IMG/VR virus record: IMGVR_UViG_3300025934_000001
Location: 45,417 to 109,416 of that record
DNA: 64,000 bases
From: a virus
Lineage: Duplodnaviria; Caudoviricetes
Direction: 5' to 3' (one strand)
Shown: positions 1 to 45,648 of the stretch, piece after piece
How the letters are laid out: each line of letters begins with the position of its first letter
Numbering within the stretch: the stretch's first letter is position 1
Translations under genes and position numbers: made by a program
The notes under the pieces: generated by a model
What the model was told of the DNA's origin: nothing
The model's input: the letters and a program-made list of their open reading frames with translations, nothing else
Database searches by the model: none

Positions 1-1749
1 GGGCGCTGCGAGGGCGCGGGCTACGGGCCGTGGAATGGCGGCAGCGTCGGCGAGCCCGGCAACGGTACTACGCCCGGCACGGGGACCCCGGGTGACGGCA
101 CCGTCCCCGGCCCGGGCCAAGGCGGCCCGGTAGATCCTCTGACCGGCGACTGGTTCGGCCGCAGCGGCGGCCAGTGGACCCAGTTCGTGGGCAGCGGCTT
201 CGGCGGCAGCGGCGCGGGGGCCAATTACGCTACCTGCAGCGGGCGCATCACCGGCTTCGTCGGCGATGGCGGCGGCGGGCAGGAAGGCGCCGGCGGCGGC
301 GAGACCCTGCAACCGCAGTACGCCATTCTGGTGGGGGTCCTGCAGCCGTTCGCCGGCTTCATGACCACCCTGCAGAGCGTGGTGGGCACGTGCCGGGCCT
401 TCATCGGCAGCATCGACGGCTTCGCCGCCAACGTGGATGGCGGCTTCGTCGGGGTGGATGGGCCGCCGCCGTTCGTGCCGCCGACGTCCACCGGCACCCC
501 CACCGACGGCTACGAGCCCGACTACAACGGCGACTGGCCCGGCCGCATCGGCGGGCAGTGGCGCAACTTCGTCTGCATGGCCTTCGAAATGTCGGCGGTG
601 CTCACCGGCGGCTATTTCGAGAACACCCACGGCGGCGAGTATCAACTGATCGGCCAGGGCAACACCCCGGCGGTCGGCAACGATCCGGTGACCGGGCTGC
701 CGGTGGGCTGGGGCTTCTTCGGCCTCCACGGTGGCGGCTGGACCCTCGATGCGTGGGGTGGCGGGATCTTCGAGGAAACCGGCCCGGCGGGCTCCCTGGT
801 AGCGACCGGCACCGCGGCCATCCTCGGGACCTTCGATGAAATCGGGCCGGTCGGCGACCTCGTCATCCAGGGCACCGTCGGCATCGGCGGCGGCTTCCTC
901 GGCGAGCACTTCGGCGGCTGGACGCTGCAGGCCTACGGCGGTGGGTACTTCAATGAAATCGGGCCTGCGGGCACGCTGGGCAGCAGCACCGGCGGCACCG
1001 GCGGCGCGATCGGCAACGCGGGCGCGGCGGGCAGCTTCCTCGCCATCGGCCCCGGCGGCACCCTGGTGGCGAGCGGCGTCGCGCGTGGCGAGTTCGGGGT
1101 CTTCGATGAAGTGGGTCCTGCCCTGCAGGCGCTGTGGGGCGATTTATTCGCCATTGGACCGAGCGGCATTCTTGTGGCAGCGGGCAATCCGCTGCCCGGC
1201 CTGGCCGCGCCGGACGACAGCGAGGGCTACTCGATCACCCTGCTGGAGGACGCCGAGGGCACCACCAGCACCGCCAGCTCGCGCTACACCCAGTACCCGT
1301 TCGAACGCATCGTGCGCTTCGGCAGCGCCTACCTCGGCATCACGCCCTCGGGGATCTTCCAGCTGGGCGGAGAGACCTTCGATGGAGTGCCGATCGTGGC
1401 CCAGGTGGCGCATCCGCCGCATGACTTCCCCGGGGCCATGGGGCGGGCGGCGGTGAGCGAGCGGGCGCAGCTGCTGAAGACCATGCGCTCGATCTTCTTG
1501 ACCGGGCACATCCCGGCCACGGTGGAGGTGAGCGTGGCGGTCGACGACGACCCGGCGACGCTCAATCCGTACACCTACACCCCGGAGGCCACCGATACCG
1601 CGCGTAATCACCGCATCGACGTGGGCAGGGGGCTCGAAGGCCGCTACATTCAGATGAGCCTCACCAACCCTGACGGCAAGGACTTCGTGCTCGAGGAAAC
1701 CAGCGCCGAATTCGACGTCAGCAAGCAGAGGAAGATATGGCGCACGTAG
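1..1749 (+). CDS. Gly-rich virion/tail-associated protein (5' truncated by window)
   Basis: Frame 1 is open from base 1 to the stop at 1749; repeated 'GG.F.E.GP.G.L' units; overlaps the next virion ORF. Confidence 0.65.
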   Translation, partial: GRCEGAGYGPWNGGSVGEPGNGTTPGTGTPGDGTVPGPGQGGPVDPLTGDWFGRSGGQWTQFVGSGFGGSGAGANYATCSGRITGFVGDGGGGQEGAGGGETLQPQYAILVGVLQPFAGFMTTLQSVVGTCRAFIGSIDGFAANVDGGFVGVDGPPPFVPPTSTGTPTDGYEPDYNGDWPGRIGGQWRNFVCMAFEMSAVLTGGYFENTHGGEYQLIGQGNTPAVGNDPVTGLPVGWGFFGLHGGGWTLDAWGGGIFEETGPAGSLVATGTAAILGTFDEIGPVGDLVIQGTVGIGGGFLGEHFGGWTLQAYGGGYFNEIGPAGTLGSSTGGTGGAIGNAGAAGSFLAIGPGGTLVASGVARGEFGVFDEVGPALQALWGDLFAIGPSGILVAAGNPLPGLAAPDDSEGYSITLLEDAEGTTSTASSRYTQYPFERIVRFGSAYLGITPSGIFQLGGETFDGVPIVAQVAHPPHDFPGAMGRAAVSERAQLLKTMRSIFLTGHIPATVEVSVAVDDDPATLNPYTYTPEATDTARNHRIDVGRGLEGRYIQMSLTNPDGKDFVLEETSAEFDVSKQRKIWRT

Positions 1750-3674
1750 ACGACCTGATCACCGACGCGAGGTTCTACGCCTCGCAGGTGCTGTTCGGCG
1801 CCGGCCAGGCCATGGGGCAGGCCATGAACGCCATCACCAGCCTCGGCGCGGTGGGGCTGCCCGACGACCTGCTGGAAGGGCTCAACAGCCTGGTGCCGCC
1901 GCTGCCGCCCAACCCAGTGGCGATCCCTGGCTATGCCGGTAGCCGCTTCGATCCGGCCGATCCGCCCGACGGGCCACCGGAGTTGATCGACCCGGGCGAC
2001 CTGCAGGAGCCTCCCGAGCCGGGCAAGCCGCCCGACGTGCGCCGCTACGTGGCCCCGCCGCAGCCGGCGCAGACGGTGCCCAACCCGAGCCAGATCGGGC
2101 CGCAGCCGAACCTCAACATCGACCAGATCGTGGCCAGCATCCCCATGCCGCCCGAACTGCAGAGCAAGATCGACGCGATCCCGGTGCCGCCGATGAGCGA
2201 CATCAACCTGCCGCCGACGCCCGAGCTCATCTTGCCGGTGTACCAGCCGGGGCCGCCGCCGCGCGATCCGGGGCCGCCGCCGGACAACCTGGACGACCTC
2301 CTGCGGCAGCAGTTCGAGACCATCAGCCCGGTCATGCAGAACGCGCTGCGGGCCCAGTTCGATGCCTGGATCGACTTCTACTACCCGACGCTGCGCGCCG
2401 GGGTGGCGGCGATGGAGGCCAAGCTGGACCAGTTCCTGTTGGGCGGCACCGGCCTCACGCCGATCCAGGAGGACGCGCTCTACAACCGGGCGCTGGACAA
2501 GAACGGGGCGGAGTACACCCGCGCCCGCGCCGGGGCCTACGCCGAGGGGGCCAAGTTGGGCTTCACCCTGCCGCCGCCGCTGGTCTACCAGCAGGCCAAG
2601 GAGATCGACCAGAGCTACCGCGACAACCTGGCGCGCACGGCCAACGAGATCATGGTCAAGAACGCCGAGTTGGAGCAGCAGAACATTCAATTCGCTCTCA
2701 CGCTCCGCAGCAATGCCTCCACTGCGCACATGAGCGCGGCCATCAGCTACTACGGGCATCTGGTGCAGGTCAACGGCCAGGCGCTGCAATACGCGATCGC
2801 GGTGGTGGAGCAGGTGGCGAAGGTCTACGGTCTCGCCATCGAGTACGCCAAGGTGCAGATCCAGCTGGAAGAGTCGCGCATTCACCTGTACGAGGCGCAG
2901 CTGAAGGCCGCCACCATGGTGATCGAGTTCTACAAGGCGCAGATCGAGGGCGAGCTGGCCAAGGTGACGGTGGATAAAGCGCGGGTGGAGCTCTACACCG
3001 CGCAGCTGCACGCGGTGGAGGTGCAGGCCTCCATCTACAACACCGAAATGCAGGGCGCGCGGCTGCGCGGCGACATCGAGAAGCTCAAGGTGGAGTTGTA
3101 CGACGCCAACGTGCGCGCCTATGCGGCGACGGTGTCGGCCTACTCGGCTGGCTGGTCCGGGTACGAGGCGGCGGTGCGCGGGGCAGTGGCCGACGTCAAC
3201 GGCAGCGTGGAGCAGATCCGTGGCTACAGCGCGCAGGCCGAGTATTTCCGCACCATCCTCACCGGCCGCATCAGCGAGATCGAGGCCAAGCAGCGCCAGA
3301 ACGAGGGCAACACCCGCGTCTACGAGGCGCAGATCAACGCCTATAGAGCCCTCAACCAGGCCGAGATCGAGAGCGTGAAGGCCGAGCACGAGGACTATGA
3401 CCTGCAGCTGAAGACCCGGCTGTCGGAGCAGACCGTGCGCGGCGAGTATTACCGCAGCCAGATCTCCTACTTCGACATGGCCGCCAAGGCGATGCTGGAG
3501 ACCGTGCGCATGGCGCTGGAAGACATCCGCGAGGTCAACCGCATGAACCTGGGCAAGGCGCAGGCGATCGCCACCCTGTCGGCGGCCATTGGCCACGACT
3601 ACGCCGCCACCGCGCAGTCGGCGCTCTCCGGGCTCAATACCCTGGCCGGCGAAGTCAAGACCACCACCAGTTGA
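1737..3674 (+). CDS. Virion structural protein (Pro-rich N-terminus, helical coiled-coil C-terminus)
   Basis: 645 aa, GC3-typical codons, SD-like GAGGA upstream, lies in the virion operon. Confidence 0.65.
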   Translation: MAHVDDLITDARFYASQVLFGAGQAMGQAMNAITSLGAVGLPDDLLEGLNSLVPPLPPNPVAIPGYAGSRFDPADPPDGPPELIDPGDLQEPPEPGKPPDVRRYVAPPQPAQTVPNPSQIGPQPNLNIDQIVASIPMPPELQSKIDAIPVPPMSDINLPPTPELILPVYQPGPPPRDPGPPPDNLDDLLRQQFETISPVMQNALRAQFDAWIDFYYPTLRAGVAAMEAKLDQFLLGGTGLTPIQEDALYNRALDKNGAEYTRARAGAYAEGAKLGFTLPPPLVYQQAKEIDQSYRDNLARTANEIMVKNAELEQQNIQFALTLRSNASTAHMSAAISYYGHLVQVNGQALQYAIAVVEQVAKVYGLAIEYAKVQIQLEESRIHLYEAQLKAATMVIEFYKAQIEGELAKVTVDKARVELYTAQLHAVEVQASIYNTEMQGARLRGDIEKLKVELYDANVRAYAATVSAYSAGWSGYEAAVRGAVADVNGSVEQIRGYSAQAEYFRTILTGRISEIEAKQRQNEGNTRVYEAQINAYRALNQAEIESVKAEHEDYDLQLKTRLSEQTVRGEYYRSQISYFDMAAKAMLETVRMALEDIREVNRMNLGKAQAIATLSAAIGHDYAATAQSALSGLNTLAGEVKTTTS

Positions 3675-3684
3675 GAGGCACGCC

Positions 3685-5217
3685 ATGCCCGACGATCCCG
3701 ATCTGCAAACCACGGCCTACATCCCGCGCAGCCAGCAGTTTGGCTCGATGGGCGATCCCGGGTACTTCACCGGCAACGCCCCGCCGGTGCCGCCGCCAGC
3801 GCCGTATGCCAGCGGGCGCTCCCCGGCCGTCAATCCGGGCTTCTCGGCGCCGCCGATCTACCCGCAGGCAGGGGCCGCACCGCCGATCACCGCCAACGTG
3901 TCGGAAGCGCCGCGCCCGGCACCCATGGCCGCGCCACCGATCACGCAGCGGGCCGCCATGGCCGCTGCTGTCCCCTCCGGTCCAGTGGAGGCCGCGGCCA
4001 CCGGCTCCTTCGGCGCGCAGCCGCTGGGGCCGCCGGCACCCGCGCCCGCCTTCGGTGGCGGCAACGAGGGCGGCTTGCCGCTGGCCGCCCGCGGCTACAC
4101 CACGCCGCCCCCAGCCTATGCCGGCGGGGGTGAAGGCGGGATGGGCTACGCCGGGCGCGGTTATGCGGGAACCCAGGAAACAGCGGCCACGGGTGCGCAG
4201 ATGACTGGCCCGCCACGCGGGCCAATCGTGGGCAGCGCGGCGATCGACTTCGGCAACCAGCACGTGATGGGCACGCCGACGGTGCAGGCGCGCAACCAGA
4301 CCTATGCGCAAAGCGATCTCGACCGGCTGGGCAGCGGCGGCAATCCGGAGGCGCTGGCGGCGGTGAAGGCGCAGTACGCGGCCAGCCAGGCGCAGGACCG
4401 GGCCGACCAGCAGCAGGCCTACGAGGCGCGCGGGCGCGGGATGCAGGAGAACATTGCCTTCGGCGAGCAGTACAAGGGCGGCATGAACGCCTTTGACCGT
4501 GCCAATCAGGAGCGGGTAGCGCGCATCAACGCTCGCGGGCGCGAGGTGTTCGGCCCGCAGAGTTCGCGCATGGCCGGCACCAGCGACGCCGAGCGCGCCG
4601 CAGCGGCCGGGCGCGGCGCGGCCAACGAGCCCTCGACCCGCGATTTCTTCAAGGAAGCGGGCCACGCGCAGGACATGGTGACCAGCGCCCGCAAGGCGGT
4701 GGGCGACGAGAAGACAGCCAAGCTCGAGCGCGAGGGGAAGACGGTCGACATCGAGGGCAAGAAGGCCGACATCAAGACCAAGGGGGTGGAGACCGAGACC
4801 AAGCAACAGACGCTGGAGGGGCAGAAGCAGATCGCCGCCCTCCGCGCCAAGATCGACAAGCTGCCGCCGGGCAAGGAGAAGGAGGACGCCATCCGGCAGC
4901 TGTACGCCTACGAGGGCAAAGCGGGAGCGCACCAGGCCAAGTTCATCATGGGCGAGCAGCCGTTCGGCGAGCCGGACAAGATCACCGGGCAGCAAGGGAA
5001 GATCCGGGTCCCGGTCAACAGCGAGACCGGCGAGTATCTGCACCCGCCCGGCGGCGGCACCATTACCGGCCAACCGGCCGCAGCGGGCGCGGCCAAAGGC
5101 CCCTATACCGACGTCGCGGCGGCGCACCTGGACGCCAAGAAGGCGATCGCCGCCGGGATGCCGGTGGACGAAGTCAACAAGCGCCTGATCGCAGGCGGCT
5201 ACCCCGCGGTGCAATAG
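3685..5217 (+). CDS. Putative internal virion/ejection protein
   Basis: GAGAGG then ATG at 3685; low-complexity Ala/Pro/Gly sequence; C-terminal 'AKKAIAAGMPVDEVNKRL' motif; directly precedes the giant gene. Confidence 0.6.
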   Translation: MPDDPDLQTTAYIPRSQQFGSMGDPGYFTGNAPPVPPPAPYASGRSPAVNPGFSAPPIYPQAGAAPPITANVSEAPRPAPMAAPPITQRAAMAAAVPSGPVEAAATGSFGAQPLGPPAPAPAFGGGNEGGLPLAARGYTTPPPAYAGGGEGGMGYAGRGYAGTQETAATGAQMTGPPRGPIVGSAAIDFGNQHVMGTPTVQARNQTYAQSDLDRLGSGGNPEALAAVKAQYAASQAQDRADQQQAYEARGRGMQENIAFGEQYKGGMNAFDRANQERVARINARGREVFGPQSSRMAGTSDAERAAAAGRGAANEPSTRDFFKEAGHAQDMVTSARKAVGDEKTAKLEREGKTVDIEGKKADIKTKGVETETKQQTLEGQKQIAALRAKIDKLPPGKEKEDAIRQLYAYEGKAGAHQAKFIMGEQPFGEPDKITGQQGKIRVPVNSETGEYLHPPGGGTITGQPAAAGAAKGPYTDVAAAHLDAKKAIAAGMPVDEVNKRLIAGGYPAVQ

Positions 5218-5220
5218 GCC

Positions 5221-8200
5221 ATGGCCGGTCTGTTCGACGACGTGCTGGCCCCGGCCGCGCCGGCCTCCAAGCCGGGGCTGTTCGACGACGTCCTCAACCC
5301 CAACGCGCCCACCGCCAAGGGCGGGCTGTTCACCGACGCCAAGCCGCCAGTGCTGGAGCCGGGGGAGGAACCGCCGAAGTTCGACTTCTCGGCTCCAGTG
5401 GGCGAAGAGGGCTTCATCGGCGCCATGAAGGCGGTCCCGGGCAGCGCCGAGCGCGCGGCCAAGATAGCAATCCCGCAAATGGTGGGGCAGACCGAGCAGT
5501 GGTTCGGCAGCGGTATGGGGCTGCCCGCGCTGGAGCAGTACGGCAAGGACGTGCAGGCCCGCGCCGAGGCCCGCGCCGAGACCACCCCGAAGGAAACGCT
5601 GGTCAGCCAGCGGGCGCGCGAGGACAGCTGGACCAACACCCGCGGCTGGGTGGAGCCGGGGATCGAGAACACGGTGCGCTCGTTCGCCCCGACGGTGGCG
5701 GGCGCGGTGATTGGCGGCGTGGCCGGCTTGGTGGTCGGGGGGCCGCCGGGCGCTGCTGCGGGTGCGATAACCGGCGCCAAGTGGGGCGCAGTGGCAGGGG
5801 TGCCGCTGTGGTACGCCAGCCAGGCGCAGGAGACCCACGACAAGGTGAAGAAGGCGCAGCTGACCAAGATCGGCGGGCTGGACGAGAAGCCGCCCGGTAT
5901 GGTCACTCCCGGCAACATCGACCTCACCGACCGCCCGGTGGTGCAGAACGCGGACGGCACCATCAGCACGGTCAAGACCATCGGCGTCAACTTCGGCGGC
6001 CAGGAGACCGTGATTCCGACCGTCAGCGACGACGGCCGCATCCTCTCCAACGCCGAGGCCATCGCCCAGTTCCGCAAGACCGGCAAGCACTTCGGCCAGT
6101 TCGATAGCGTCGCGGCGGCCAACGCCTACGGCCAGGCACTGCACGTGGCGCAGCAGAAGATGTACGACCCCAAGGTGCAGGCCAAGGTGGAGGCCGACGC
6201 CAACGAGGCGGGCCACATCAGCGGCACCATCGAAGGCGCAACCGACTACGTCCTCTCCAAGATCGGGATTGGCGCGTGGACCAAGCCGCTCAAGGCGAAG
6301 CTGGCCGGGGGGGCCAGCGGGGTCGCTGTGAAGTCGCTGTTCGGGGCTCCGGTCAAGCAAGCGGTGAAGACGGTGGGCGGGGTCATCGCCAAGGAGATCC
6401 CGGTCGAACTGGGCCAGCAGGCCGGCGAATCCGCGGTCGAGGGCGCCTACGGGGCCGGGCCGGGGGCGACCTGGAAGGACACCATGAGCGTGTTCGGCCC
6501 GACGGTCGTCATGGGCCTGATCACGGGTGTCCCGGCTGCTGCCCACAACCACTACAGCCGCGGGCAGACGCAGCAGTTACTGGGCAACGGCACTGCTGAC
6601 CCGACCGACCGGAAGGGGGCGGCGCTGACCGTCGGGGCGGCGCTGAAGGAGAACCACCCCGGCGTCGCCGCTGCATTCCTGCTGTACGCCAACGACCAGA
6701 TCGCCGCCAACCAGCCGATCGCGCTGGAGAACGACGCCTTCTACCAGAACTACGCGACGACGCGGCCACCGCCCCCGCCGCCTCCTGCTGGCGGCACCGC
6801 GGCACCACCGCCTACGGGGCCGCCCCCGCCGCCTCCAGCCGGGGGTACGCCGGGCGCCACCCCTCCGCCGAACCAGCCGCCGCCAACGGGGAACCCACCC
6901 ACCCCGGGCGGCCAACCTACCCCACCCCCGACCGGAACCCAACCACCCCCCCCGACGGGGCCGGGACCCGGCACGCCTCCCCCAACGACCCCCACCGCGC
7001 CGCCCAACGCGCCGGCATCGTCGGCCGCCACCCTGCTGCAGCACGCCGCCACCCGCTGGGACGAACTCTCGCGCAAGGCCAACGGCACCCCCGACCAGAC
7101 CATCGTGGGGCCGGACGGCAAGGCGCGGGTGGTGCCCGGGCAGCAGCCGGAATACCTCACCCGCGAAGAGCTCACCGAATACCAGTTTCTGCGCTCCCAC
7201 CGCGACAACCCGGAGCAACTGGCCTCGCGCCTCGGGGTGCGCCTGCTCACGCCCGCGGAAGAGCACGCCCAGGCGCGGGTCGAGACCCAGCAGCGCACTG
7301 GAATAGACCCGGGTACGGGGGTCGTCGGCGCGGCAGCGGCGGCAGCGGTCGACAGCGGGGTCGCCGCCAATCCACTCACCGGAGGCGTCAATGCCCTACA
7401 AGAGCCGAGCGCAACAGGGGTACTTCCACACCCACCAGAAGGAACTGGAGCGCCAGGGGGTGAAGGTGGCGGAGTGGGACCAGGCCAGCAAGGGGCTGAA
7501 GTTGCCGGCCAAGGTGCGCCCGAAGCCCAAGGCCCGCAGCTGACCACGCCGGCCTACGCGACGGAGGCCGCAGCCCAGGCGAAGGCGCAATACCTGACCA
7601 CGCAGTCCGGGGTGCCGCATGAGGTGGTCGAGCATCCGGAGTCCCCCGGCGCCTTCGCGGTGCAGGAGAAGGAAGCGGAAGGAGAGCCCAGTGGTACGGA
7701 TCAAGCAGACACGGGAAGAGGCGAAGGTGAGCCGGCAGATCAAGGCCATGCAGAAACAACGGGAGAGGCAGCGCCAGCCGCAGCCCCTGCCGAAGGCGCG
7801 CCCGCCGCGGGGACGGTAACAGAAGAACCGGCGGCGGTGAGGCCGGAAACCACTGAACACCTCACCCCCGAGGATCTGCAGCCGCTGGTCGACAAGCTGA
7901 ATGAAGTCGTGGCCGCCGACCAGGCGGTGAAGGCCGCGAAGAGCGCCAAGGCGCAGAAGGAACACAAGCCGGCCATCAACACCAACGAGCAGTTGCTGCT
8001 GGCGGGGGCGCAGCGCGATCTGCGCGAGGGCAAGCCGGGGGCGCTCGACGAACTGCGCAAGATGGTGGGGATGCACCACGAGCCGGGCGACTGGATCGGC
8101 GGCACGGTGCGCAAGCAGCTGCGGGATCTGCTGATGCGGAAGGCCCCGCCGCACTGGAACTACGAGACCCTGGGCGCGATCGCGGAGGATGCCAAGAAGC

Positions 8201-11200
8201 ACAAGCGTGGCGCCACCATCCGCGAGACCCTGGACGAAGCCCGCGACATGATGGACGCGGGCGATCCCGCCGCCTACAACGCGCTCAAGAGCGCCGCCTT
8301 CCAGGCTGGCTACAACAGCGACCTCGGCAACCGCATCCTGGGGCTGATCAAGGAAGCCCACAGCCCGGAAGCGGCGGCGGAGGTGGCGGAAGCCAAGGCG
8401 GCGACGGAGCCGGTGCCCCACCTTCGTGAGAAGGAAGCGGAAGAGGAAGTCATCCCCGTCACCGAGGCGCAGGCCGAGGCCTGGCGGGAGCACTACGCCG
8501 GGATGAAATTGAGCGAGGCGAAGCCGGGCAAGCTGCCGACCATCACGCCGGTCACCCACGCCGGCAGCCAGTGGGTGGTGACCGGAGTGCAAGGCGGGAG
8601 CACGCATCCGTGGCAGCTGAAAGTGCAGGAACTGGTGCCCGACGGCTTGGGGCCCGAGTGGAAGAAGGGCCAGCCGCCGGGCTCGTTCTACGACGGCCGG
8701 CGGGTGCAGGTGCGGGGCGGCAAGACGTTTCAGATGGGCGTGCGGAAGGCGATCTTCGAAGCGCCGAGCACCCCCGAGCAGGAGAAGAAGCGGGCCGAAC
8801 TGAAGGCCCGGCGCGAAGCGGATGAGAAGGCCGAGGCGGAGCGGATCGCCGCCTATCCGCGCGACGTCGAGGGCCGCTCGCCCAACCAGGCCGGCGTGTA
8901 CCAGCCGACCGAAACGCTCGAGCTGCCGGTCACCAAGAAGAACTGGCGCGGCGTCGCGCTGGCGGAGATCAACCTGGTCGAACTGCGCGACGGCACTTGG
9001 CGCATGGGCCTGTCCTCCAACTTCAACCACGGCAGCATGACCGGCACCGGCTTCGCTCCGAGCGCCGATGGGCACAGCTTCGCCACCCGGGCGGAAGCGC
9101 TGGACGCCGCGATCGCGCGTCTACGCCGCCATGCCGAGTCGTTTGCCGCGGGCCGGGAGAACAAGGGGATGCCGGCGCAGGCCGAGGCCAACAAGGTGCT
9201 GAACTGGCTGGACGGCCTGCAGGTGCCGGGGCGGGCGAAGGCGGAGCCGACCGGCGACGCCGAGGCCGAGCGCATCGCGGGCTTGAAGACCGAGGCAGGG
9301 CAGAAGGCGATCGCGCGCTCCCGCGACAGCTTGCGCGAGAGCTTCGATCGGGCCATCGCCGCCTGGAAGCCGCGCGAGAGCTTGGGGGTCTACATCCGCG
9401 ATGACCCCAAGAAGCGCGGCTGGCTGGGGATCTTCGTCAGCGAAGGCCACGGTCCCGAGAAGATGCTCATCAGCGTCGAGCTGACCCCCGGCAGCAACGT
9501 CGCCGTCGGGCCGTGGGATCTCGGGCAGATCAGCAAGGTCTTCCACGCCTGGCTGCAGAAGCAGCCCAAGGCCGAGCGGCGCATTCCCACCCATGCCGAG
9601 CAGCAGGATCGCTCGCGCGACGAGGCCAAGCGGGCGCTGGAAGGGGCGCTCAAGAAGGCGGAAGAGGCCGGCGAGCTGTGGGAGTTGAGGGCCGGGCTGG
9701 TCGGGCTGCAGGCGCGGCTGAACAGTGGCTCTAGCAGCGCACCGCCGTACTACGCCAAGGCCGTGGCGGAGCGGATCGACAAGCTGATCGCGGCGGCGCA
9801 GAAGGATCCCGAGCGGACCTTCGATTTCTGGCTGTCGAAGGGCCTGACCCCGCGCCAGAAGCGCGACGCCGAGAAGCGCGCGGTGGCCGAGCAGAAGGCC
9901 GCCGAGCGGGCGGCGACGCTGGAGCAGCGCATCCGCAAGGCCAAGGACGACATCGCCCGCATCGAGCAGCGGGCCAGCGCCGAAGCAATGGAGAACTGGC
10001 GCGCGGCCACGCCCAACATCCGCCATACCTTCCCCACCAGCATGACGGTGGAGTCCAAGGCGGCGAAGGCGCAGTTCGAGGCCGAGGCGCTGGCCAAGCG
10101 GCAGCCCACCATCGACCAGCTGCGCAACAAGATCGAGGCGTGGGAGGTGCAGCTGGGCCTCCGCGCGGCGCCCGTGCGCGAGCCGGAAGGGCCGCAGTAC
10201 GACTTCCAGCAGACCTTCCCCGAGCCCGACGTCGAGGAAATGAATCGCGCCGGGCGCGAGGCACCGTATGCGGCGGGCGACCAGGTGGCCGCTGCTGCCT
10301 GGCACGCCGATGTGGCGGAGGAACTGCGGCGGCTGGTGAAGGCGGAGGAAGCCGACGAAACGGCCTTGCGCGGCAGCCTGCCGCCGGACAAGCGGACCAA
10401 GGTGCAGGCAGCGCTGCGCGAAACGCGCGAACTCTACAACGCCAAGATGGGCGAGTACCGCGATCTGTTCGGCGATGCGGCGCACCTGCAATTCGAGTCG
10501 CACGTGCATGGTCTGGAAGAGCCCGCCGCCAAGAAGCCGGTGACGCCGCAGGTGGAAGCGCCGCCCGGCTCCGCCCCGCTGGGGATGAAGACGCCGGAAG
10601 CGCCAGCGCCCACACCGGCGCAGCCGCAGTTCGCCAAGAACACCGTCTTCACGCAGGACGCGGTAGCGGCTGCACGCGAGCGGTCGCGCAAGAAGCTGGG
10701 CACGCTGCGCACCGGCTTCGATCCGGAGCTGTTCCAGGACTTGGTGACTATCGCCGGGGCCTACATCGAGTCCGGCGTGCGCGAGTTCGCCGCGTTCAGC
10801 AAGGCCATGATCGAAGACCTGGGCGAAGGCGTGCGGCCCTATTTGCGCACGGTTTACGATGGGTTACGCTCGTGGCCTGGGCTCGAAACCGTCGGGATGA
10901 CCCCGGCGGCCGACATCGACGCGGAGGCCGCACGTGCACACATTCAGCCAGCAGGCCCTGGTGAACCTGGGGCGGGAGCACTGGAGAGAATTCCAGCCGA
11001 AGCGTTACAAGGCACTCCAGCAGGCGGGGAAGCTGGAGCAGGAACTGCAGGCCGCGGCCAATCTGACGTTGAGCGAAATGGAGAGCAGCCGACAACTGGG
11101 GTACACGCAGGAGGAAGCGTGGGAGTTGTCCATGCAGAACCACCTGCTGGTGCCACCGGAGAAGGGCAGCCCGCAGGAGCCGCTGCCGGACAACCCGGCG

Positions 11201-14200
11201 TACACGTCCCTAGCGGAGGTCAATCGGATGCGGGACCAACCGCCCCCGGCGAGCCCTTCCCGCAAGCCCACAACTTCGTAATCACCGACGAGATCGAACT
11301 CGGCAAGGGGGGCCTGGTCCAGAAGTTCAAGGACAACGTAGCCGCCATCCGGCTGTTGAAGCAGATCGAGAGCGAGAACCGCCGCGCTACGCCGAACGAG
11401 CAGAAGATCCTGGCCAAGTACGTCGGCTGGGGTGGCCTCAAGCAGGTGTTTCCGCCGCCCGGCGGCAAGCTGGCCAAGGGCTGGGAGGCCCGGGTGGCCG
11501 AGGTGCGCGACCTGCTCACCCCGGACGAGCACGAGGCCGCGGCCCGCACCATCCTCGACGCGCACTACACCAGCCGCGAGATCGTCGAGGGCATCTGGGC
11601 CATCGCGCAGCGCCTCGGCTTCACCGGCGGTAAAGTGCTAGAACCGTCGATGGGCAGCGGCAACTTCTTCGGCCTGCTGCCGGCGGACCTGCGCAGCACC
11701 ACCTCGCTCACCGGGGTGGAGCAGGACCACATTACCGCGCGTATCGCCAAGCAGCTGTATCCGGAGGCGGCGGTGCTGGGGCCCGTGGGGTTCCAGGACA
11801 CCAACATGCGCAACGGCCACTTCAACCTGGCCGTGGGCAATCCGCCGTTCGGCCCGCAAACGCTGTTCGACGAGCACAGCCGCCACCTGCGCGGGTTCTC
11901 GCTGCACAACTACTTCTTCGCCAAGGCGATCGACAAGCTCGCCCCCAACGGCATCCTGATCCAGGTGGTGTCGCGCTACCTGATGGATGCGCAGACTTCC
12001 ACCGCGCGCGAGTACCTGGCGCACCGCACCGAACTGCTCGGGGCCATTCGCCTGCCGTGGACCGCGTTCTACGCCAACGCGAATACGGAAGTCGTTACCG
12101 ACATCGTCATCCTGCAGAAGCTGCCGAGCGACCAGTGGGGTGGCGCCGACCAGACCTGGACCCAGACCACCGAAGTGCCGGACCCGCTGGGGGGCAAGCC
12201 GATCCGGGTGAATGCCTACTTCGCCGCGCATCCGGAAATGATCCTCGGCACCATGGATCGCAGCGGCGAAATGCTGCATGAGAACGACGTCACGGTGCAG
12301 CCGCGCAAGAACGAGCCGCTGGCGGTGGGCCTGGCCAACGTCATCGCCACCCTGCCCGAGGACCGCTATACGCGCGGTAAATCAGAGGAAGAGGTGCAGC
12401 ACGAGGCCACCGCGGCGGTGAACGACGACGGCGTACCCACGGGCGACACCGGCTCCTACCACGAGGCTCACGGCTTCCTGCAGCAGGTGGTGCAGAACGC
12501 CGACGGCAGCCTGGGGCTGGTCAAGATCACCGCCGACACGCTGTGGAACGCCGACGCCAAGCCGGAGACCCGGCTCGATCCCAAGACCGGCCAGCGGGTC
12601 ACGGTGGAGCCGGCCAAATGGGGCGTGGAGCGGCTGGCGCGGGTGCGCGCCATGGTCGCCATCAAGGACACCGACCGCGAGTTGCTGCGGGCCGAGGCGA
12701 CCGACGCGCCGCTGGCGCGGCTGTCCTACCTGCGGCAGCAACTGAACGAGCAGTACGACGCCTTCGTCGCCCGCTACGGCTACCTCACCGACCAGGCCAA
12801 CGAGCGGGCCTTCCGCGCCGATCCCGACGCGCCGCTGCTGCTGGCGCTGGAGACCGACTACGACCGCGGAGTCTCGGCCGATCGCGCCAAGACCCTCGGG
12901 GTGCCCGCGCGCAAGCCATCGGCCAAGAAGATGCCGATCTTCACCCAGCGGGTGGTGCTGGCGCGGGTGGCCCCCACCACCGCCGCCAACGTGCGCGACG
13001 GCGCGGCGGTCTCGCTGAACGAGCGCGGGATGCTGGATCCGGCCTACATCGCCCAACTCACCAGCAAGACCCCCAACGCGGTGATCGCCGAGTTGACCGA
13101 CGGTGAAAAGCCGATCGCCTTTTTCGATCCGATCCAGCAGACCTACGAGCCGGCGGCGGAATACCTCTCGGGCAATGTGAAGCGCAAGTACGCCGAGGCG
13201 CTGCAGGCGGGGCTGACCAAGAACGCGGACGCGCTGCGGGCGGTGTTCCCGGCCGATCTCAAGGCCGGCGAGATCGCGGCGCGGCTGGGCTCGCCGTGGA
13301 TCGAGACCGCGGCCTACGAGGGCTTTGCGCAGCACCTGTTCGGACCCACCACCGAGGTGCGGGTGGGCTACCTGCCCGGTACCGGCGGCTTCGCGCTGGC
13401 GCTGGCCGGGGGCGACAAGGCGCTGCGCGAGACCCGCTGGGGCGTCAACCACGTGGCGCTGCTCGACGCCAACGGCCAGGAAAGCGGCGCCTTTGCCGAC
13501 GGCCGCGACGGCGACGACCTGCTCTCGCGCGTGCTCAACAACAAGGATCTCACCGTCTACCACACCGACCAGGACGGCAACCGCTACTCGCACCCGGAGG
13601 TGACGCAGGCCCTCGCTGACCGCGCCGACGAAATGCGGCAGGAATTCGAGCTGTGGATCTTCAAGGATCTGGAGCGGCGCGAGCGTCTGGTGCAGCACTA
13701 CAACGACAACTACAACACCAACGTCAAGCCGGTTTACGACGGGTCCTACCTCACCTTCCCGGGCAAGGTGCCGGACACGGTGATCCGCTTCCGCAAGCAC
13801 CAGAACGACGCGGTCGCCCGCATCATCCGCACCGGCAAGATCCTGCTCGATCACGTGGTGGGCGCGGGCAAGACCTACACCATCATCGCCGCCGCCATGG
13901 AACAGCGCCGCCTCGGCCTCAAGAACAAGCCGCTGGTGGTGGTGCCGAATCATCTGGTCAAGCAGTGGGCGTCGTCGTGGTATCGGCTGTATCCGGCAGC
14001 CAAGATCCTGGCCATGCGCAAGGAGGATTTCTCCAAGGTCAACCGGCAGCGGATGCTGGCGCGCATTGCCTCCGGCAACTGGGACGGCGTGATCTTCGGC
14101 CATTCGTCGTTCGGCTTCATGGCCAACGATCGCTCGCTGGTGCTGGCCGAAATGAGCAAGCAGGTGGAGCAGATCCAGGAGGCCATCCGCGCCGCCCGCG

Positions 14201-17200
14201 AAGTCGAGGGCGCGCGCTCGCAGACCGCCCGGCAATACCAGCGGCAGAAGGAGCGCCTCGAGCAGAAGATGCGCGAGCTGGCGTCGAAGCCGCAGGACAA
14301 GCTCTTGACCTTCCAGGAGCTGGGCGTCGACATGCTGTACCTGGACGAGTCGCAGGAATTCAAAAACCTCTTCTTCACCACCCAGCGCCGCAACGTCGGC
14401 GGCTTCGGCAACCCCACCGGCAGCAAGAAGGCCTTTGACCTGTTTATCAAGGGTCAATGGCTGCAGAACACCTACAACGGCGGCGGGCTGGCCTTCGCCA
14501 GCGGCACCCCGGTCAGCAACAGCCTGACCGAGCTCTACACCCTGCAGCGCTACCTCGGCCTCACCGAACTGGAGAACCGGGGGCTGCTCTCGCTCGACGC
14601 CTGGCTCAACACCTTCGGCGTGGTGGAGTCGGAGTACGAGTCCAACGTCACTGGCACCCGCTACAAGCGCAAGGATCGGCTGCGCCGGCTGACCAACGTG
14701 CCGGAAGCGCAGCAGATGTATCACGCCTTCGCCGACGCGGTGACGATGGACACCATCAAGGCCAACTTCCGCGCCGATCACAACGGGGCCGAGTTTCCGA
14801 TCCCCAAGGTCAAGGGCGGCAAGCCGCGGCAGAACGTGGTGGTGCCGGCCTCGTGGCTGCAGCGGTCCTACTCCGCCGGGCTGCAGCTGCGCATGGAGAG
14901 CCTGCGCCGCGGCGGTACCGACAACGCGCTGGCCATCCTCACCGACGGGCGCAAGGCGGCGCTCGACATCCGCCTGGTGGACCCGAGCGCGCCCGACAAC
15001 CCGACCGGCAAGAGCAACACCGCCGTGGGCGAGATCAAGCGCATCTACGAGGCCAATACCTACCGTAAAGGCACGCAGTTGGTGTTCCTCGATCTCTCCA
15101 TGCCCTTGAAGCAGGGCGTGAAGGCGGCCGAGGGCTACTTGAAGGAAGGGCGCGAGTTGCTGCCGCTGGGCGTTACCGTGCCCGCCGTGGGGACCATGAC
15201 CAGCCAGTGGCAGCAACTGCACGCGGCGCTGGTGGATCACCTGGAGAACCTGGACGAGGACCAGGCGCCGAACGCGATCGAGCAGCTGGAGGCCTTCCTC
15301 GCGCAGTCCACCGACATCGGCGCGGCGATGACCACGGTGGACAGCAAGTTCTCGGTCTACGACGACATGAAGGCGAAGATGATCGCCGCCGGCATTCCGG
15401 CCAACGAGATCGCCTTCATCCACGACGCCAACACCGAGCAGCAGAAGCAGGATCTATTTGATCGAGTAAATGCCGGCAGCGTGCGGGTGCTGATGGGCTC
15501 GACCATGAAGATGGGGGCCGGCACCAACGTGCAGCAGAAGGCGGTGGCGCTGCATCACATCGACGTGCCGTGGCGGCCGTCCGACATCGAGCAGCGCGAG
15601 GGCCGCGTCATCCGGCAAGGCAACGAGTTTCGCCAGGCCGATCCCAATTTCGAGGTGGAGATCCTCGCCTACGCCACCGAGGGCACCTCGGACGTCTTCT
15701 TCTGGCAGACGCAGGAGCAGAAGCTCAACGCCATCAACAGCCTTCGCAACGCTTCCGGCGAGCGCGAACTGGAGGAAGTGTCCAGCGACACCATGAGCGC
15801 GGCGGAAATGAAGGCGCTGGCCTCGGGCAATCCGCTGATCCTGGAGGACGTGAGCCTGACCGAGAAGGTGCGCAAGCTGTCCGCGCAGCAGCGCCGGTTT
15901 ACTTCCGAGCAACAGGACCTGGAATCGCAGGCAGCGCGCTACGAGCGCCAGATCGCCGGGCTGCCGGCGCTGATCGAGGAACAGAAGGACGTAGCCGCCA
16001 AGGCCGACGCCTACCACGCCGATCCGTTCGCCGGGGTAACGCGGAAGACGGTCGAGGTCGACGGCCAGCAGCTGAATGCGACCCAAGCCGGGGCGCACAT
16101 CCGCGAGGTGGCCGAAGCAGCGAAAGCGGTAGCCAAGGCCACCGACGAGCCGCGCGACGAGCGCCTGAAGACGCTGCGCGCGCAGGCGGTCGAGCTGTCT
16201 GCGCAGGGGAAAAAGAACACCCCGGAATACCAGGCGATCGAGACCGAGTTCAAGGCCCTGTTGGCGGCACCCGACACCAAGCCGGTGCTGAAGATCACGG
16301 TGGCCGGCAAGACCTACATCAACGAGAACGGCGCGGTAACCGCGGTGGAGCGCGAGGTGGGCGACATCCACGCCTTCCGCTTCGTCGGCGCCGACGGCCA
16401 CGAATACATCCGGCGGGAGGAACTGGAGGCGGCCCTCAAGCGGACCCTGGCGGCGCAAATGGGGCAGCCGGAGGCGGAGCAACTCGGCACCCTCGGCGGC
16501 CTTCCCGTGACGCTGCAGTGGACCCAGGGCCGCTACGGGGTTGGGTTCGAGGTCAGCCTCGGTACCGAGAGCCGCTTCCTGGAAGAGCGCGCCGCCACCC
16601 AGTTCATGCAGGCCGAGCGGGTCGATGGCGTGAAGGTCGTCAGCGCCATGATGCGGCTGCTGCGGGACGCGCCGGTGGTCCTGCACGAGACCCAGACGGC
16701 GCTCAAGGCGGCGCAAACCGGCCTCGCGCCGGTGCAGGCGCAGCTGGGCAAGACCTGGGGCAAGGAGGGCGAGCTGGCGGCGGCGCGGGCGCGCCTGACC
16801 GAGGTGCGGCTGCTGCTGTCCGGCGCTACGCCCACCGCGGCGGCGCCCTACGAGGGCCCCATGAGCTATCGCGGGGTGCAGATCGCCGGCCCCTATCAGG
16901 TGCCGCCCGGTGGAATGCGCTACTCCCTCGGCGGGGCCGCCGGCCAGTCGCTGAATACCAAGGCGGCGGTGGAGGCGGCGATCGCGGCGGTGGTGGCGAA
17001 GTGGCGCAACGCGCCGCGGCTGACTGTGGTGCAGTCGGTGGCGGAACTGCCGCCCTCCCCCGACGGCAAGCCGTACCCGCTGACCCTGCGCGGCGTCTAC
17101 TTCGGCGGCCACGTGTTCCTGGTGGCCGACAACATCCTGCCGGGGCGGGAGCAGTTCGTGGCCTCGCACGAGGCGCTGGGCCACTTTGGGCTGCAAGGCT

Positions 17201-20200
17201 TGCTGGGCGATCAACTGCAGCCGCTGATGGAGCAGATCTACCGCAGCAACCCGAAGGCCAAGGCGGCGGTCGATCGCATGATCGCCGAGGTCAAGGCCAA
17301 GTATCCGGGGCTGCATTACGACATCGCGCGGGCGACCGAGGAATACCTGGCGGATTTGGCCGAGGCCGGGCGGCTGACCGAGGTCAAGGGCTGGCGGCTG
17401 CTGGTGGCGGCGATCCGCAAGGCCTTGCGCGCGATCGGCTTCACCGTCGAGTTCTCCGACAACGACATCGTGGCGCTGCTGGCGAATGCCCGCCGCTACG
17501 TCGAGCAGGGGGCGCGGCAGCCGCAGGTGCAGGGCCAGTTGGAGCCGGCGCTGTCGACCACGGGCCAGGCGGCCCCGCTGTGGTATTCGGCGCTGGCCGA
17601 GGCGGTGGCAGGGGCGAAGCAGACGCTGGCGCCTTCCGCCATGTGGCAGGGGCTTCTCAAAAACCTGCCCGGGGTGAAGAAGGAAGAGGTGGAGTGGTCG
17701 GGCCTGCGCGAGTGGCTGCAGCTGCAGCAGGGCAAGGTGAGCAAGGACGAGATCATGGCCTTCCTCAAGGCCAACGGGGTGCAGGTGGAAGAGCGGGTGT
17801 ATGGAGCGCCAGAGGCGGGCGGGCCGGCGCTGCAGGAGGAACGCGAAACGCTGGAAGAGGAACTGGGGCGGCACGGCTTCCAGGTGGGCTATACGCAGAG
17901 CGGGCGCCTCGACACCCTCACCCGCGACGACCAGACCTGGGCGCAGAACCACGACAACGACAACTGGGTGGCGCTGGATCCGGCGACCGGCGATGTGATG
18001 GAGAACGGGCCGTCGCTGCCGGCCGACGCCGAAATGGCGGCCATGGCCCTGCAGCGCGTCACCGATCCCGGCTATGAGCCGGGGCAGCTGCGCGCCGCCC
18101 AGTTCAGTGGCTGGAAGCCGGTGAAGCAGGGCGGCCAGAACTACCGCGAACTGGTGCTGACCCTGCCGTTGCACCAGCCGTCACTGGCGCTGGACGTGTT
18201 CAAGGCCAAGCTGGCGGCGAAGTACGGCATCGAGGGGGACGAGGACAGCCCCGCCAGCGGCCTCATGTCACAGGCCGATCGCTTCGAGCTGCAGCGGCTG
18301 CAGGCCGAGGCCAGGAAGCAGGAGGCCCGCAACTACAAGGGCGGCCACTTCAAGGCCTCGCCCAACTCACTCCTGCATATCCGCTTCGACGAGCGCACCG
18401 ACGCCGAGGGCAAGCGGGTGCTGTTCATCCAGGAGCTGCAGTCGGACTGGGGGCAGAAGGGCGGCCAGTTCGGGTTTGCCGACGATCGCGCCGAACAAGC
18501 CATGGCGGCGTATGAGGCCCGCCGCAATGCGCTGCAGGCGCGCTACGACGACCTGGTGGCGCAGTGGAACGCGGTCCCCTTCGGCGGGGTGGGCATCACC
18601 ACGGAGGTGCGGCAGCAGCGCAACGAGCAGCGCGCGGCACTGATGGATCAGCGTTCCGCCGCGCACCGGGACCTGATGGCGCTGTACCAGGAGCGCCCCC
18701 CGACCCGCAGCCACTACAGCACCATCCCGGCCGCCCCCTTCGTGGCCAAGCGCGAGTACGCGGTGTTCACCAAGAACGCGGAGGGGGTGGAAGAGGAAGT
18801 CACCCGCACCCTCAAGACCGAGGGCAAGGAGGACCAGCAGGTTGCGCAGCGCTACGGCACGCTGGAAGAGGCGCAGGCCGCCGCCAAGAAAGTGGAGGGC
18901 GGCGAGGCGCGCGACGTCGGCTACGGCGAGAACACGCCGGCGTGGGTGGGGCTGGGGCTGAAGCGGATCATCCGCTGGGCCGCCGATCACGGTTTCGACC
19001 GCATCGCCTGGGCCACCGGCGACCAGCAGGTGGCGGCCTACCCGGGGCTGGAGAAGCACATCGACAAGTTGGACGTCACCGCCGAGCCGCGCACCTATGG
19101 CGGCAAGATCTGGCGCGTCAAGGGGCTGAATCCGGCCGGCGAGGACGTGGTCCACATCACCGCCTACGACGAGAAGCAACTGCAGAAGGCGATCGGCAAG
19201 GAACTGGCCGCGCGCGTTCTCCGCGACACCGCCCACGCTGCCACTGCCAACTACCGCAACCTCGACACCAAGATCGGCGGCGAGGGGATGCGCACCTACT
19301 ACGACCGGGTGCTCCCCAACATCGCCAACGATGTGTTGAAGAAGCTGGGCGGCGAGCGGGTGCGGGCGCTCACCGGGGTGATCGACCCCAAGACCGCCAC
19401 CTATGACGGGCCGGTGGGCCAGGACTTGCTGAACCAGTTGCGCGACATCGTCCGCGGCGGGCACCCGAGCCAGGTGGGGCAGACCGAGGCACAGATCGCG
19501 CCGGTGCGGGCGGCGGCGCGGGCGGTGCAGACCGCCTACTACGGCACCGCCAGCACCCGCGAGGCGATGGAGGCCCACGCCACCCCGGAACTGCTGGCGG
19601 CGGTGGGCGGCACCCTCACCAAGGCGGATCCCAGCGGACTCCAGCCCGGCTTCGACGTCACCCCGGCGCTGCGGGCGAAGGCGCTACAGGGAATGCCGAT
19701 GTTCTCCCTGGCGCAGCAGGCCACGGCGGCCTTCCGCCGCTGGTTCGGCAACAGCCAGGTGGTGACCGACCGCGGCGCTCCCATGCGGGTGTTCCACGCC
19801 ACCAGCGCCACCCGCGACTACGTCATCTTCCGCCGCTTCGCCCACTTCGGCACGGTGGAGCAGGCCAACTTCCGCAGCGCCTACGAGCCGCTGGTGCTGC
19901 CCTACCAGAACCGGCAGGCGCAAGGGCCCAAGCGCACCATCCCGGTGTACCTGTCGATCCAGAACGCGCTCAAGATCGACGACACCGGCGAGCAGCACGA
20001 CGTGCAGTTGCTGACCGACCTGGCCCGCGACGCGGGCGGCATCAGCGACGAGCAGTGGCTGTGGATCCGCGGCCGCTCGCTCGACCGCCAGCTCGAGCGG
20101 CTGTCGGAGCGCGATCGCGGCGACCGCCTGATCGCGGCGCTGAAGAAAAACGGCTTCGACGGCTTCTACTACGAGAACGACGTCGAGGGCAGCGGCCTCT

Positions 20201-45030: not shown

Positions 45031-45648
45031 ATGATGGGGCAGGCCGCCCCGAACTACTCGCAGATGGCGAGCTTCGCGCAGCCGCAGGGCGGGGGCTCAC
45101 CTTATGGCCCGATGCAGGGCTACAGCATGCCGGGTGGCGGTTACCAGCAGCAGCAAGGCATGCAGGGCTCACCCTACGGCCCGATGCGAGGGCAGAGCAT
45201 GCCCGGTGGCGGATTCTCGCAGGCGCAGGGCGGCGGCTGGGGCGGGGGCCGCATGCAGCAGGCCATGCCACCGTGGATGCAGCAACAGATGCAGCAACCG
45301 CAGGCGGCAACGGCCGCGGCGGCGGCTCCCGATGCAGCGGTTCCCGATGCAGCGGCTGCGCAGGCCGGCTTGGCAGGGGGCAGCACCACACCCGTCGGTA
45401 GCGAGGCCGTGCCCCTGCCGCAAGCGCAGGCACCGATCGGCATGCGCCCGATGGGCGGCGCCATGTACCAGCGCGGCGGCTACGGCGGCGGCTACGGCGG
45501 CGGCTACGGCGGCGGCTACGGCGGCGGCTACGGTGGCGGCTACGGTGGTGGACGTGGCGGCGGCTGGGGTGGTGGCTGGGGTGGTGGGGGCGGTTGGGGC
45601 GGCCCCATGCAGCGACAGATGATGCAGGCGCAGGCACTGCGCCGTTAA
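45031..45648 (+). CDS. G/Q/M/Y-rich low-complexity protein
   Basis: In the operon frame; GGYG x6, GGW, Q/M-rich. Confidence 0.6.
   Translation: MMGQAAPNYSQMASFAQPQGGGSPYGPMQGYSMPGGGYQQQQGMQGSPYGPMRGQSMPGGGFSQAQGGGWGGGRMQQAMPPWMQQQMQQPQAATAAAAAPDAAVPDAAAAQAGLAGGSTTPVGSEAVPLPQAQAPIGMRPMGGAMYQRGGYGGGYGGGYGGGYGGGYGGGYGGGRGGGWGGGWGGGGGWGGPMQRQMMQAQALRR
45475..45546 (+). repeat. 12-bp tandem repeat x6 (GGCGGCTACGGY)
   Basis: Counted directly; encodes GGYG. Confidence 0.9.

Follow-up and report, generated by a model that had tools for sequence, protein, structure and literature searches.

The window analyzed in this study, a stretch of 64,000 nucleotides (nt) covering positions 45,417 to 109,416 of the IMG/VR virus record IMGVR_UViG_3300025934_000001 (Duplodnaviria; Caudoviricetes), carries on its plus strand a giant gene (5221–22950), inside which lies a second open reading frame (ORF) of 50 codons (7391–7543). 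This nested ORF, referred to hereafter as the MPYKS gene after residues 1–5 of its product, is the subject of this report. The record comprises 109,416 bp with direct terminal repeats and a G+C (GC) content of about 68–70%, and represents an uncultivated virus.

The giant gene was assigned as a 5,909-codon polyvalent, DarB-like gene on the basis of its ORF, its Pfam and PHROG matches, and its DNA similarity. Its frame runs without a stop codon across 17.7 kb, and its product matched Eco57I (methylase), ResIII and Helicase_C (helicase), and ART-PolyVal (ADP-ribosyltransferase) in Pfam, as well as a DarB-like antirestriction PHROG. In addition, its middle part is similar at the DNA level to giant genes from phages of the Bcep22, DC1, and PEp14 types. 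Polyvalent proteins are polypeptides of phages or conjugative elements in which several disparate effector domains are combined (Iyer et al. 2017, PMC5512222), and the occurrence of methylase, helicase, and ART-PolyVal domains within a single ORF of 5,909 amino acids (aa) was in agreement with this definition.

Coding signature of the nested gene

An initial annotation made from the window had pointed out a perfect GGAGG followed 5 nt later by an ATG and a basic 50-aa ORF, embedded in another coding sequence. Inspection of the sequence and its translation verified these coordinates: the Shine-Dalgarno-like GGAGG occupies 7381–7385 (+) and is separated by the spacer CGTCA (7386–7390) from the ATG at 7391, and the ORF terminates with TGA at 7541–7543. 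The frame lies wholly inside 5221–22950, with a start and a stop codon of its own, and the presence of a nested 50-codon ORF was confirmed. Since codons of the giant gene begin at 7390 and 7393, the nested frame is offset by +1. Read in the giant frame, the GGAGG encodes Gly-Gly, and the dual-coding stretch (7390–7545, +) corresponds to residues ~724–775 of the giant protein, a linker rich in Gly, Glu, Pro, Gln, and Ala. The product of the nested ORF carries a net charge of about +8. An AlphaFold2 model built with the family alignment (mean predicted local distance difference test score of 85) predicted three short helices and an extended basic tail. This model found no match in the PDB with Foldseek, gave Z values of at most 2.2 in a wide VIA-align comparison, which are meaningless, and retrieved from BFVD weak matches only, to uncharacterised 44-aa phage proteins.

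An open alternative frame of 50 codons proves nothing by itself, because a GC content of ~70% makes such frames common; indeed, dozens of this length are present in the ORF list of the window. The MPYKS ORF was nevertheless raised above chance by three independent results, namely a switch of coding signature between the two frames, the existence of many homologues, and a motif that matches the consensus of their family. As for the first of these, the GC contents at the first, second, and third codon positions (GC1/2/3) of the giant gene as a whole are 0.69/0.47/0.90. At 7321–7560, the giant-frame GC3 falls to 0.35–0.47, and the nested frame there displays a normal coding profile (0.66/0.47/0.89); that is, the codons in this interval are genome-typical and G/C-ending in the nested frame, and many of them are A/T-ending in the giant frame. 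Only three segments with a giant-frame GC3 below 0.65 were found in the 17.7 kb, the first of which coincides with the nested ORF, and the giant coding signature is found in the same frame on either side of each segment.

The MPYKS family and its genomic layouts

The initial annotation had likened the peptide to a recurrent small phage protein type with the motif MP[FY]KS.AQ..[YF]....EWD..SKG.KLP, and had suggested a peptide search for homologs. Such a search of a word-indexed database of 5.8 billion proteins returned 25 small close homologues of 43–81 aa (53–82% identity; E-values of 2.5e-17 to 1e-4). The family was found to be phage-borne and its consensus to agree with this motif. It comprises 337 clusters at 50% identity as collected with HMMER and 5,016 clusters at 90% identity as collected with the family profile, which scores the window copy at 1.1e-23, and its members were located on at least 362 contigs of IMG/VR and 313 metagenome stretches from JGI. 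Judged by homology, the nested ORF is a member of a large, unnamed family of tailed-phage proteins.

Alignment of 80 members revealed five invariant residues (M1, P2, Y3, S5, and G35) and twelve nearly invariant ones (K4, A7, Q8, F12, G23, V26, E28, W29, S33, K34, L38, and P39), all of which are retained in the window copy. The family core is composed of A-Q-x-x-[YF]-F, G-V-x-V-x-E-W-[DN], and S-K-G-x-K-L-P, after which comes a basic tail, and most members measure 45–60 aa, a pattern into which the window copy fits. Furthermore, the codon immediately before PYKS is a start codon (for M, V, or L) in 109 of 112 representatives, also where the called ORF begins further upstream; this pattern favors initiation of the small protein on its own, with its N-terminus free.

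Despite its size, the family has escaped annotation. No Pfam or PHROG family model was matched by the window peptide (Pfam E-value up to 10) or by the 80 members as a family; the isolated matches among the latter consisted of a single one to phrog_1375 (2e-4) and scattered chance matches to Pfam. The source databases, NCBI entries included, label the members as hypothetical or leave them unnamed. Among cultured phages (INPHARED, 50,697 records), tblastn searches gave no match to the window peptide at E-values up to 10 or to an AT-rich member at up to 0.01, and the Bcep22-, DC1-, and PEp14-type phages that share the middle part of the giant gene apparently do not share the small gene. In a species-genome collection, the family occurred on 14 contigs of metagenome-assembled genomes only, spread over many phyla, and in zero isolates. 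The literature search, which also covered DUF3008, DUF6321, and TnpV nesting, retrieved neither an account of the MPYKS family nor one of nested genes in polyvalent or DarB-like hosts. Language-model features placed the family closest, among named clusters, to DUF3008 (score of 0.88; 15% of the members of that cluster carry DUF3008). This Pfam family (PF11450) of small uncharacterised phage and bacterial proteins resembles the MPYKS proteins in size, viral source, and a loosely similar K-S-x-x-Q pattern at the N-terminus. Membership was rejected, as the DUF3008 hidden Markov model was unmatched by the window peptide (P0001) at E-values up to 10 and by the 80 members at up to 1, although the two families may be remotely related.

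To survey the layouts, the small gene and all frames were mapped in 160 loci, which reduced to 139 non-redundant ones. The gene stands alone in 92 of the 139, consistent with the description of it as usually standalone, and forms the in-frame N-terminal domain of a 214–1,213-aa protein in four. In 41 loci it is nested inside an ORF of 341–4,407 codons, and in two more it is probably nested in an ORF cut by the contig end; embedding is thus shared by some 30% of the loci and is not peculiar to this phage. In every nested locus, as in the window, a host codon begins two bases after the small ATG, and nesting in the other alternative frame was never encountered (0 of 139). The nested loci cover genomes of 30–62% GC, and in the AT-rich ones among them chance cannot account for open host ORFs of 1,000–4,400 codons. 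An AGGAG or GGAGG is kept upstream of the nested copies in other Shine-Dalgarno-using genomes (L012, L023, L050, and L082).

The in-frame fusions are exemplified by L005:10001-12193, L024:2213-3886, L073:10001-13642, and L091:8001-8645 and by the proteins P0110, P0155, and P0175. The partners of the N-terminal MPYKS domain include NUDIX and a C-terminal DUF6321 in some cases and a Zn-peptidase-like region in P0080. DUF6321 was also observed to terminate several function-unassigned PHROGs (phrog_727, 3477, 4689, and 10346).

The placement of the gene in virion modules, as given in the initial annotation, stood in part. The gene is often preceded by a giant ORF, which in turn comes after an ORF of ~450–540 aa, and 12 of 36 well-flanked standalone copies lie 2–533 nt beyond the stop codon of an ORF that is 1,000 aa or longer; on the other hand, only one flanking ORF in the window matched a virion-structural PHROG.

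Selection on both reading frames and alternative explanations

The closest relative, the locus L082 from a 62% GC genome, has the same nesting in a homologous giant gene. The N-terminus of its giant ORF is 32–37% identical to residues 53–508 of the window giant, the upstream gene order is the same, and behind an AGGAG its small gene sits at codon ~747, where the window copy sits at codon 724. The nesting was thus found to be conserved in a related giant gene, the point whose failure the initial annotation had named as a refutation. The small proteins are 79–82% identical. In the small frame, 20 codons differ between the two copies, 12 synonymously and 8 nonsynonymously, and in the giant frame 21 codons differ, one synonymously and 20 nonsynonymously. 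This synonymous excess in the small frame showed that purifying selection acts on the nested reading in this lineage. Apart from L082, BLASTP of the locus ORFs against the window giant gave essentially no matches, the other hosts being too divergent or mosaic, and a search of viral contigs with the giant-gene N-terminus returned no contig matching the pattern.

The trace of the second frame is most legible in AT-rich genomes. In genomes below 42% GC, the nested copies have a GC3 of 0.77 and a T frequency at third positions of 0.013, versus 0.38 and 0.21 in standalone copies; in the first data set, restricted to genomes below 40% GC, the two layouts separated completely (Mann-Whitney p = 7e-8). 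The wobble positions of the small gene are the first codon positions of the host, and they are pushed toward G (Gly, Glu, Ala, Val, and Asp codons) and away from T (stop codons); with wobble sites so enriched in G and depleted of T, the host product here is an acidic Gly/Glu/Gln/Pro linker. Tyr3 is a case in point, being encoded by TAC in 40 of 41 nested copies and by TAC and TAT in 46 and 42 standalone copies, respectively, since TAT followed by AAR would create TAA in the host frame. At the protein level, the mean identity of the small frame among 22 nested homologues was 0.69 versus 0.48 for the giant-frame linker, the small frame being the higher in 210 of 210 nested pairs, and the small proteins are as conserved among nested copies (0.69) as among standalone ones (0.69). 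Nucleotide differences among copies peaked at codon position 3. By these comparisons, both frames are kept by selection in the relatives, and we consider it probable (approximately 0.82) that the nested ORF of the window is a real gene subject to dual coding.

The alternative that survives best, though we regard it as improbable, is a captured relic, in which the small gene was swallowed when virion genes fused and is no longer translated here, its frame having not yet decayed. An unused frame can remain open for long at 70% GC, and the window ORF, at 50 aa, is shorter than its closest relatives (75–81 aa), with a tail-like piece lying detached at 7691–7819, which is readable as decay. However, the start, the stop, all invariant and nearly invariant residues, and a perfect GGAGG at ideal spacing are intact; the small frame differs from that of L082 at 12 synonymous and 8 nonsynonymous codons while the host protein fell to 32–37% identity; nested copies in general are as conserved as standalone ones; and with most members at 45–60 aa, 50 aa is complete by the standard of the family.

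Somewhat less probable still is a programmed -1 frameshift, by which ribosomes initiating at the internal ATG would slip near the end of the small ORF into the giant frame and yield a shorter, MPYKS-tagged isoform of the giant protein resembling the in-frame fusions. Such fusions do exist (L005, L024, L073, and many representatives). In all nested loci (41–43 of 41–43), as in the window, the host is read in the -1 frame relative to the small gene, and Lys-rich tails supply A-rich slippery runs in some copies. Against this, the small ORF keeps its stop codon everywhere, and the small frame of the window contains no heptamer of the X XXY YYZ type, which was found in 12 of 22 nested copies at varying positions versus 17 of 55 standalone copies; a programmed site was accordingly rejected, as the slippery heptamer has no conserved position.

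The remaining two explanations were judged very improbable. An artefact, in which paired assembly or sequencing indels shifted an in-frame domain or the giant ORF is several genes, might be entertained for a metagenome-assembled virus with three frame-switch segments in one ORF, but the layout, complete with its own start and stop and preceded within 0–22 codons by an in-frame stop, was found again in more than 40 independent contigs, drawn from different samples and ranging from 30 to 62% GC, the same giant-frame signature flanks each segment within 17.7 kb devoid of stops, and host ORFs of 1,000–4,400 codons in AT-rich genomes cannot be chance. Nor does a conserved DNA or RNA element (such as a regulatory structure, or a linker for recombination where modules meet) account well for the data: it would suit the position at junctions of shuffled modules in mosaic giant genes, but conservation is at the protein level, with the same residues drawn from different codons (GC3 of 0.38 in standalone versus 0.77 in nested copies), differences peak at codon position 3, the fold is confidently predicted, and the start codon is conserved.

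Several points weigh against a translated, dual-coding nested gene and must be set beside this evidence. The support derives from sequence comparison in an uncultivated virus, and initiation inside an ORF that is itself being translated is an assumption. At 70% GC, the host frame would stay open over the nested ORF almost by default, and dual selection rests on the relatives, since the window by itself cannot show it. Because the two labels, nested and standalone, cluster on the phylogeny, the 41 nested loci are not 41 independent events; parsimony on a poorly resolved tree gave about 15 label changes, at least two of which are forced by well-supported branches. Of the well-flanked standalone copies, only the 12 of 36 mentioned above have so long an ORF immediately in front of them, and no Pfam, PHROG, or PDB match bears on the function proposed below.

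Neighboring features, origin, and significance of the nested gene

The second frame-switch segment (7621–7860) covers another short ORF in the same +1 frame, 75–150 nt past the MPYKS ORF, which starts with GTG at 7691, 6 nt after AAGGAG, and extends to 7819 (+) within an open stretch at 7619–7819. Its basic helix, compared with the C-terminal tails of L082, P0004, and P0009, gave a local score of 48, which was reached by 3 of 500 shuffles and is thus weak. As a weak lead, this ORF may be a detached counterpart of the C-terminal basic helix found on the 75–81-aa proteins of the relatives, and 7391–7543 and 7691–7819 may have arisen in this phage by the splitting of an ancestral nested gene.

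The third frame-switch segment (10861–11280; giant-frame GC3 of 0.35–0.45) holds a TnpV-like ORF of 115 codons (10934–11281, +), likewise in the +1 frame inside the giant ORF, the product of which looks globular. This product matched positions 2086–2160 of phrog_938 (E-value of 9e-13), and the giant-frame residues preceding it matched positions 1945–2068; because adjacent parts of the profile match different frames, the two parts lie in one frame in phrog_938 members and one base apart in the window. The nesting is of the same kind as that of the MPYKS gene, for a product of ~115 aa versus 45–60 aa in the MPYKS family.

A separate low-complexity linker, a Pro-rich run (PPPPPPPAGG...) of some 80 residues at giant residues ~520–600 (6750–7030, +), precedes the nested gene by ~100 residues; its GC2 reaches 0.90–0.94, and it lacks the frame-switch signature. 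Upstream of the giant gene, a 645-aa ORF (1737–3674, +) matched phrog_10969 (function unassigned) and no Pfam family, and the 542-aa ORF directly upstream (3589–5217, +) matched neither Pfam nor PHROG. An ORF of ~450–540 aa occupies this position in many related loci (L009, L012, L034, L063, L074, L079, and L082) and may encode a portal protein.

The giant genes are mosaics, in which modules that follow the small gene in some loci precede it in others. In AT-rich uncultivated phages, for instance, a 1,127-aa ORF (L032:8101-11484) matches one giant protein over its first half (68% identity) and another beyond the nested gene (74% identity), the comparison being with L003:2740-6450 and L010:2450-9997, and between L032 and L003 the sequences become homologous again precisely where the nested small gene ends. 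As read from these alignments, the nested element marks a recombination junction between modules. Of the two readings, we propose that of the small gene as the older, since its frame yields a product that is folded and conserved and the giant frame no more than a linker of low complexity, and that the giant gene would have grown over it as neighboring virion-protein modules fused, the read-through peptide being first tolerated and then tuned as a linker. In the present phage, a free, basic, three-helix protein of 50 aa would be translated from its own GGAGG and ATG inside the late message of the giant gene, and ribosomes that began at 5221 would read the same 153 bases one base earlier, producing a flexible, acidic Gly/Glu/Pro/Gln linker between modules.

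Given that the gene is found within giant virion-protein genes or immediately behind them, and that it heads effector-like fusions, its product might tentatively be regarded as an accessory of capsid-packaged polyvalent effectors, such as an encapsidation or ejection cofactor or a binder of nucleic acid or of the linker. The fusions recall, by analogy, multi-domain effectors, in which trafficking or targeting domains usually reside at the extreme N-terminus.

Embedded genes are familiar from the spanins of phage lambda, Rz and Rz1, both of which are made and form two halves of one machine. Like Rz1 in Rz, the MPYKS gene is short, has a start codon of its own, and is entirely contained in a longer gene of the same strand, in the +1 frame; unlike Rz1, which covers much of its host gene, it resides in a host 118 times longer and overlaps a linker only. 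It also resembles comS, a 46-codon gene located out of frame inside srfAB, a giant multimodular gene of Bacillus subtilis. In contrast to comS, which is lineage-restricted and looks overprinted de novo, the MPYKS gene is old and widespread, and occurs also free and as a fused domain.

These features make the MPYKS gene an unusually clean case of long-lived dual coding: with one family occurring free, fused, and nested, the cost of overlap can be read directly, in AT-rich genomes as a wobble GC3 pulled from 0.38 to 0.77 without loss of protein conservation. They also expose a common phage protein that is under-annotated: at 90% identity its clusters number more than 5,000, yet neither Pfam nor PHROG has a model for it and cultured phages lack it. 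Its nested copies are routinely missed by gene callers, since those that forbid embedded genes cannot see them. More speculatively, and in our estimation unlikely rather than likely, the linkers of polyvalent proteins could be a general hiding place in which small partner genes such as MPYKS and TnpV are kept in the +1 frame, co-inherited and co-expressed with the shuffled effector modules, the MPYKS protein serving as a cofactor needed for capsid loading or release of the giant protein. The MPYKS and TnpV-like cases together suggest that polyvalent linkers are recurrent sites of embedded genes, which would alter the annotation and dissection of giant anti-defence genes.

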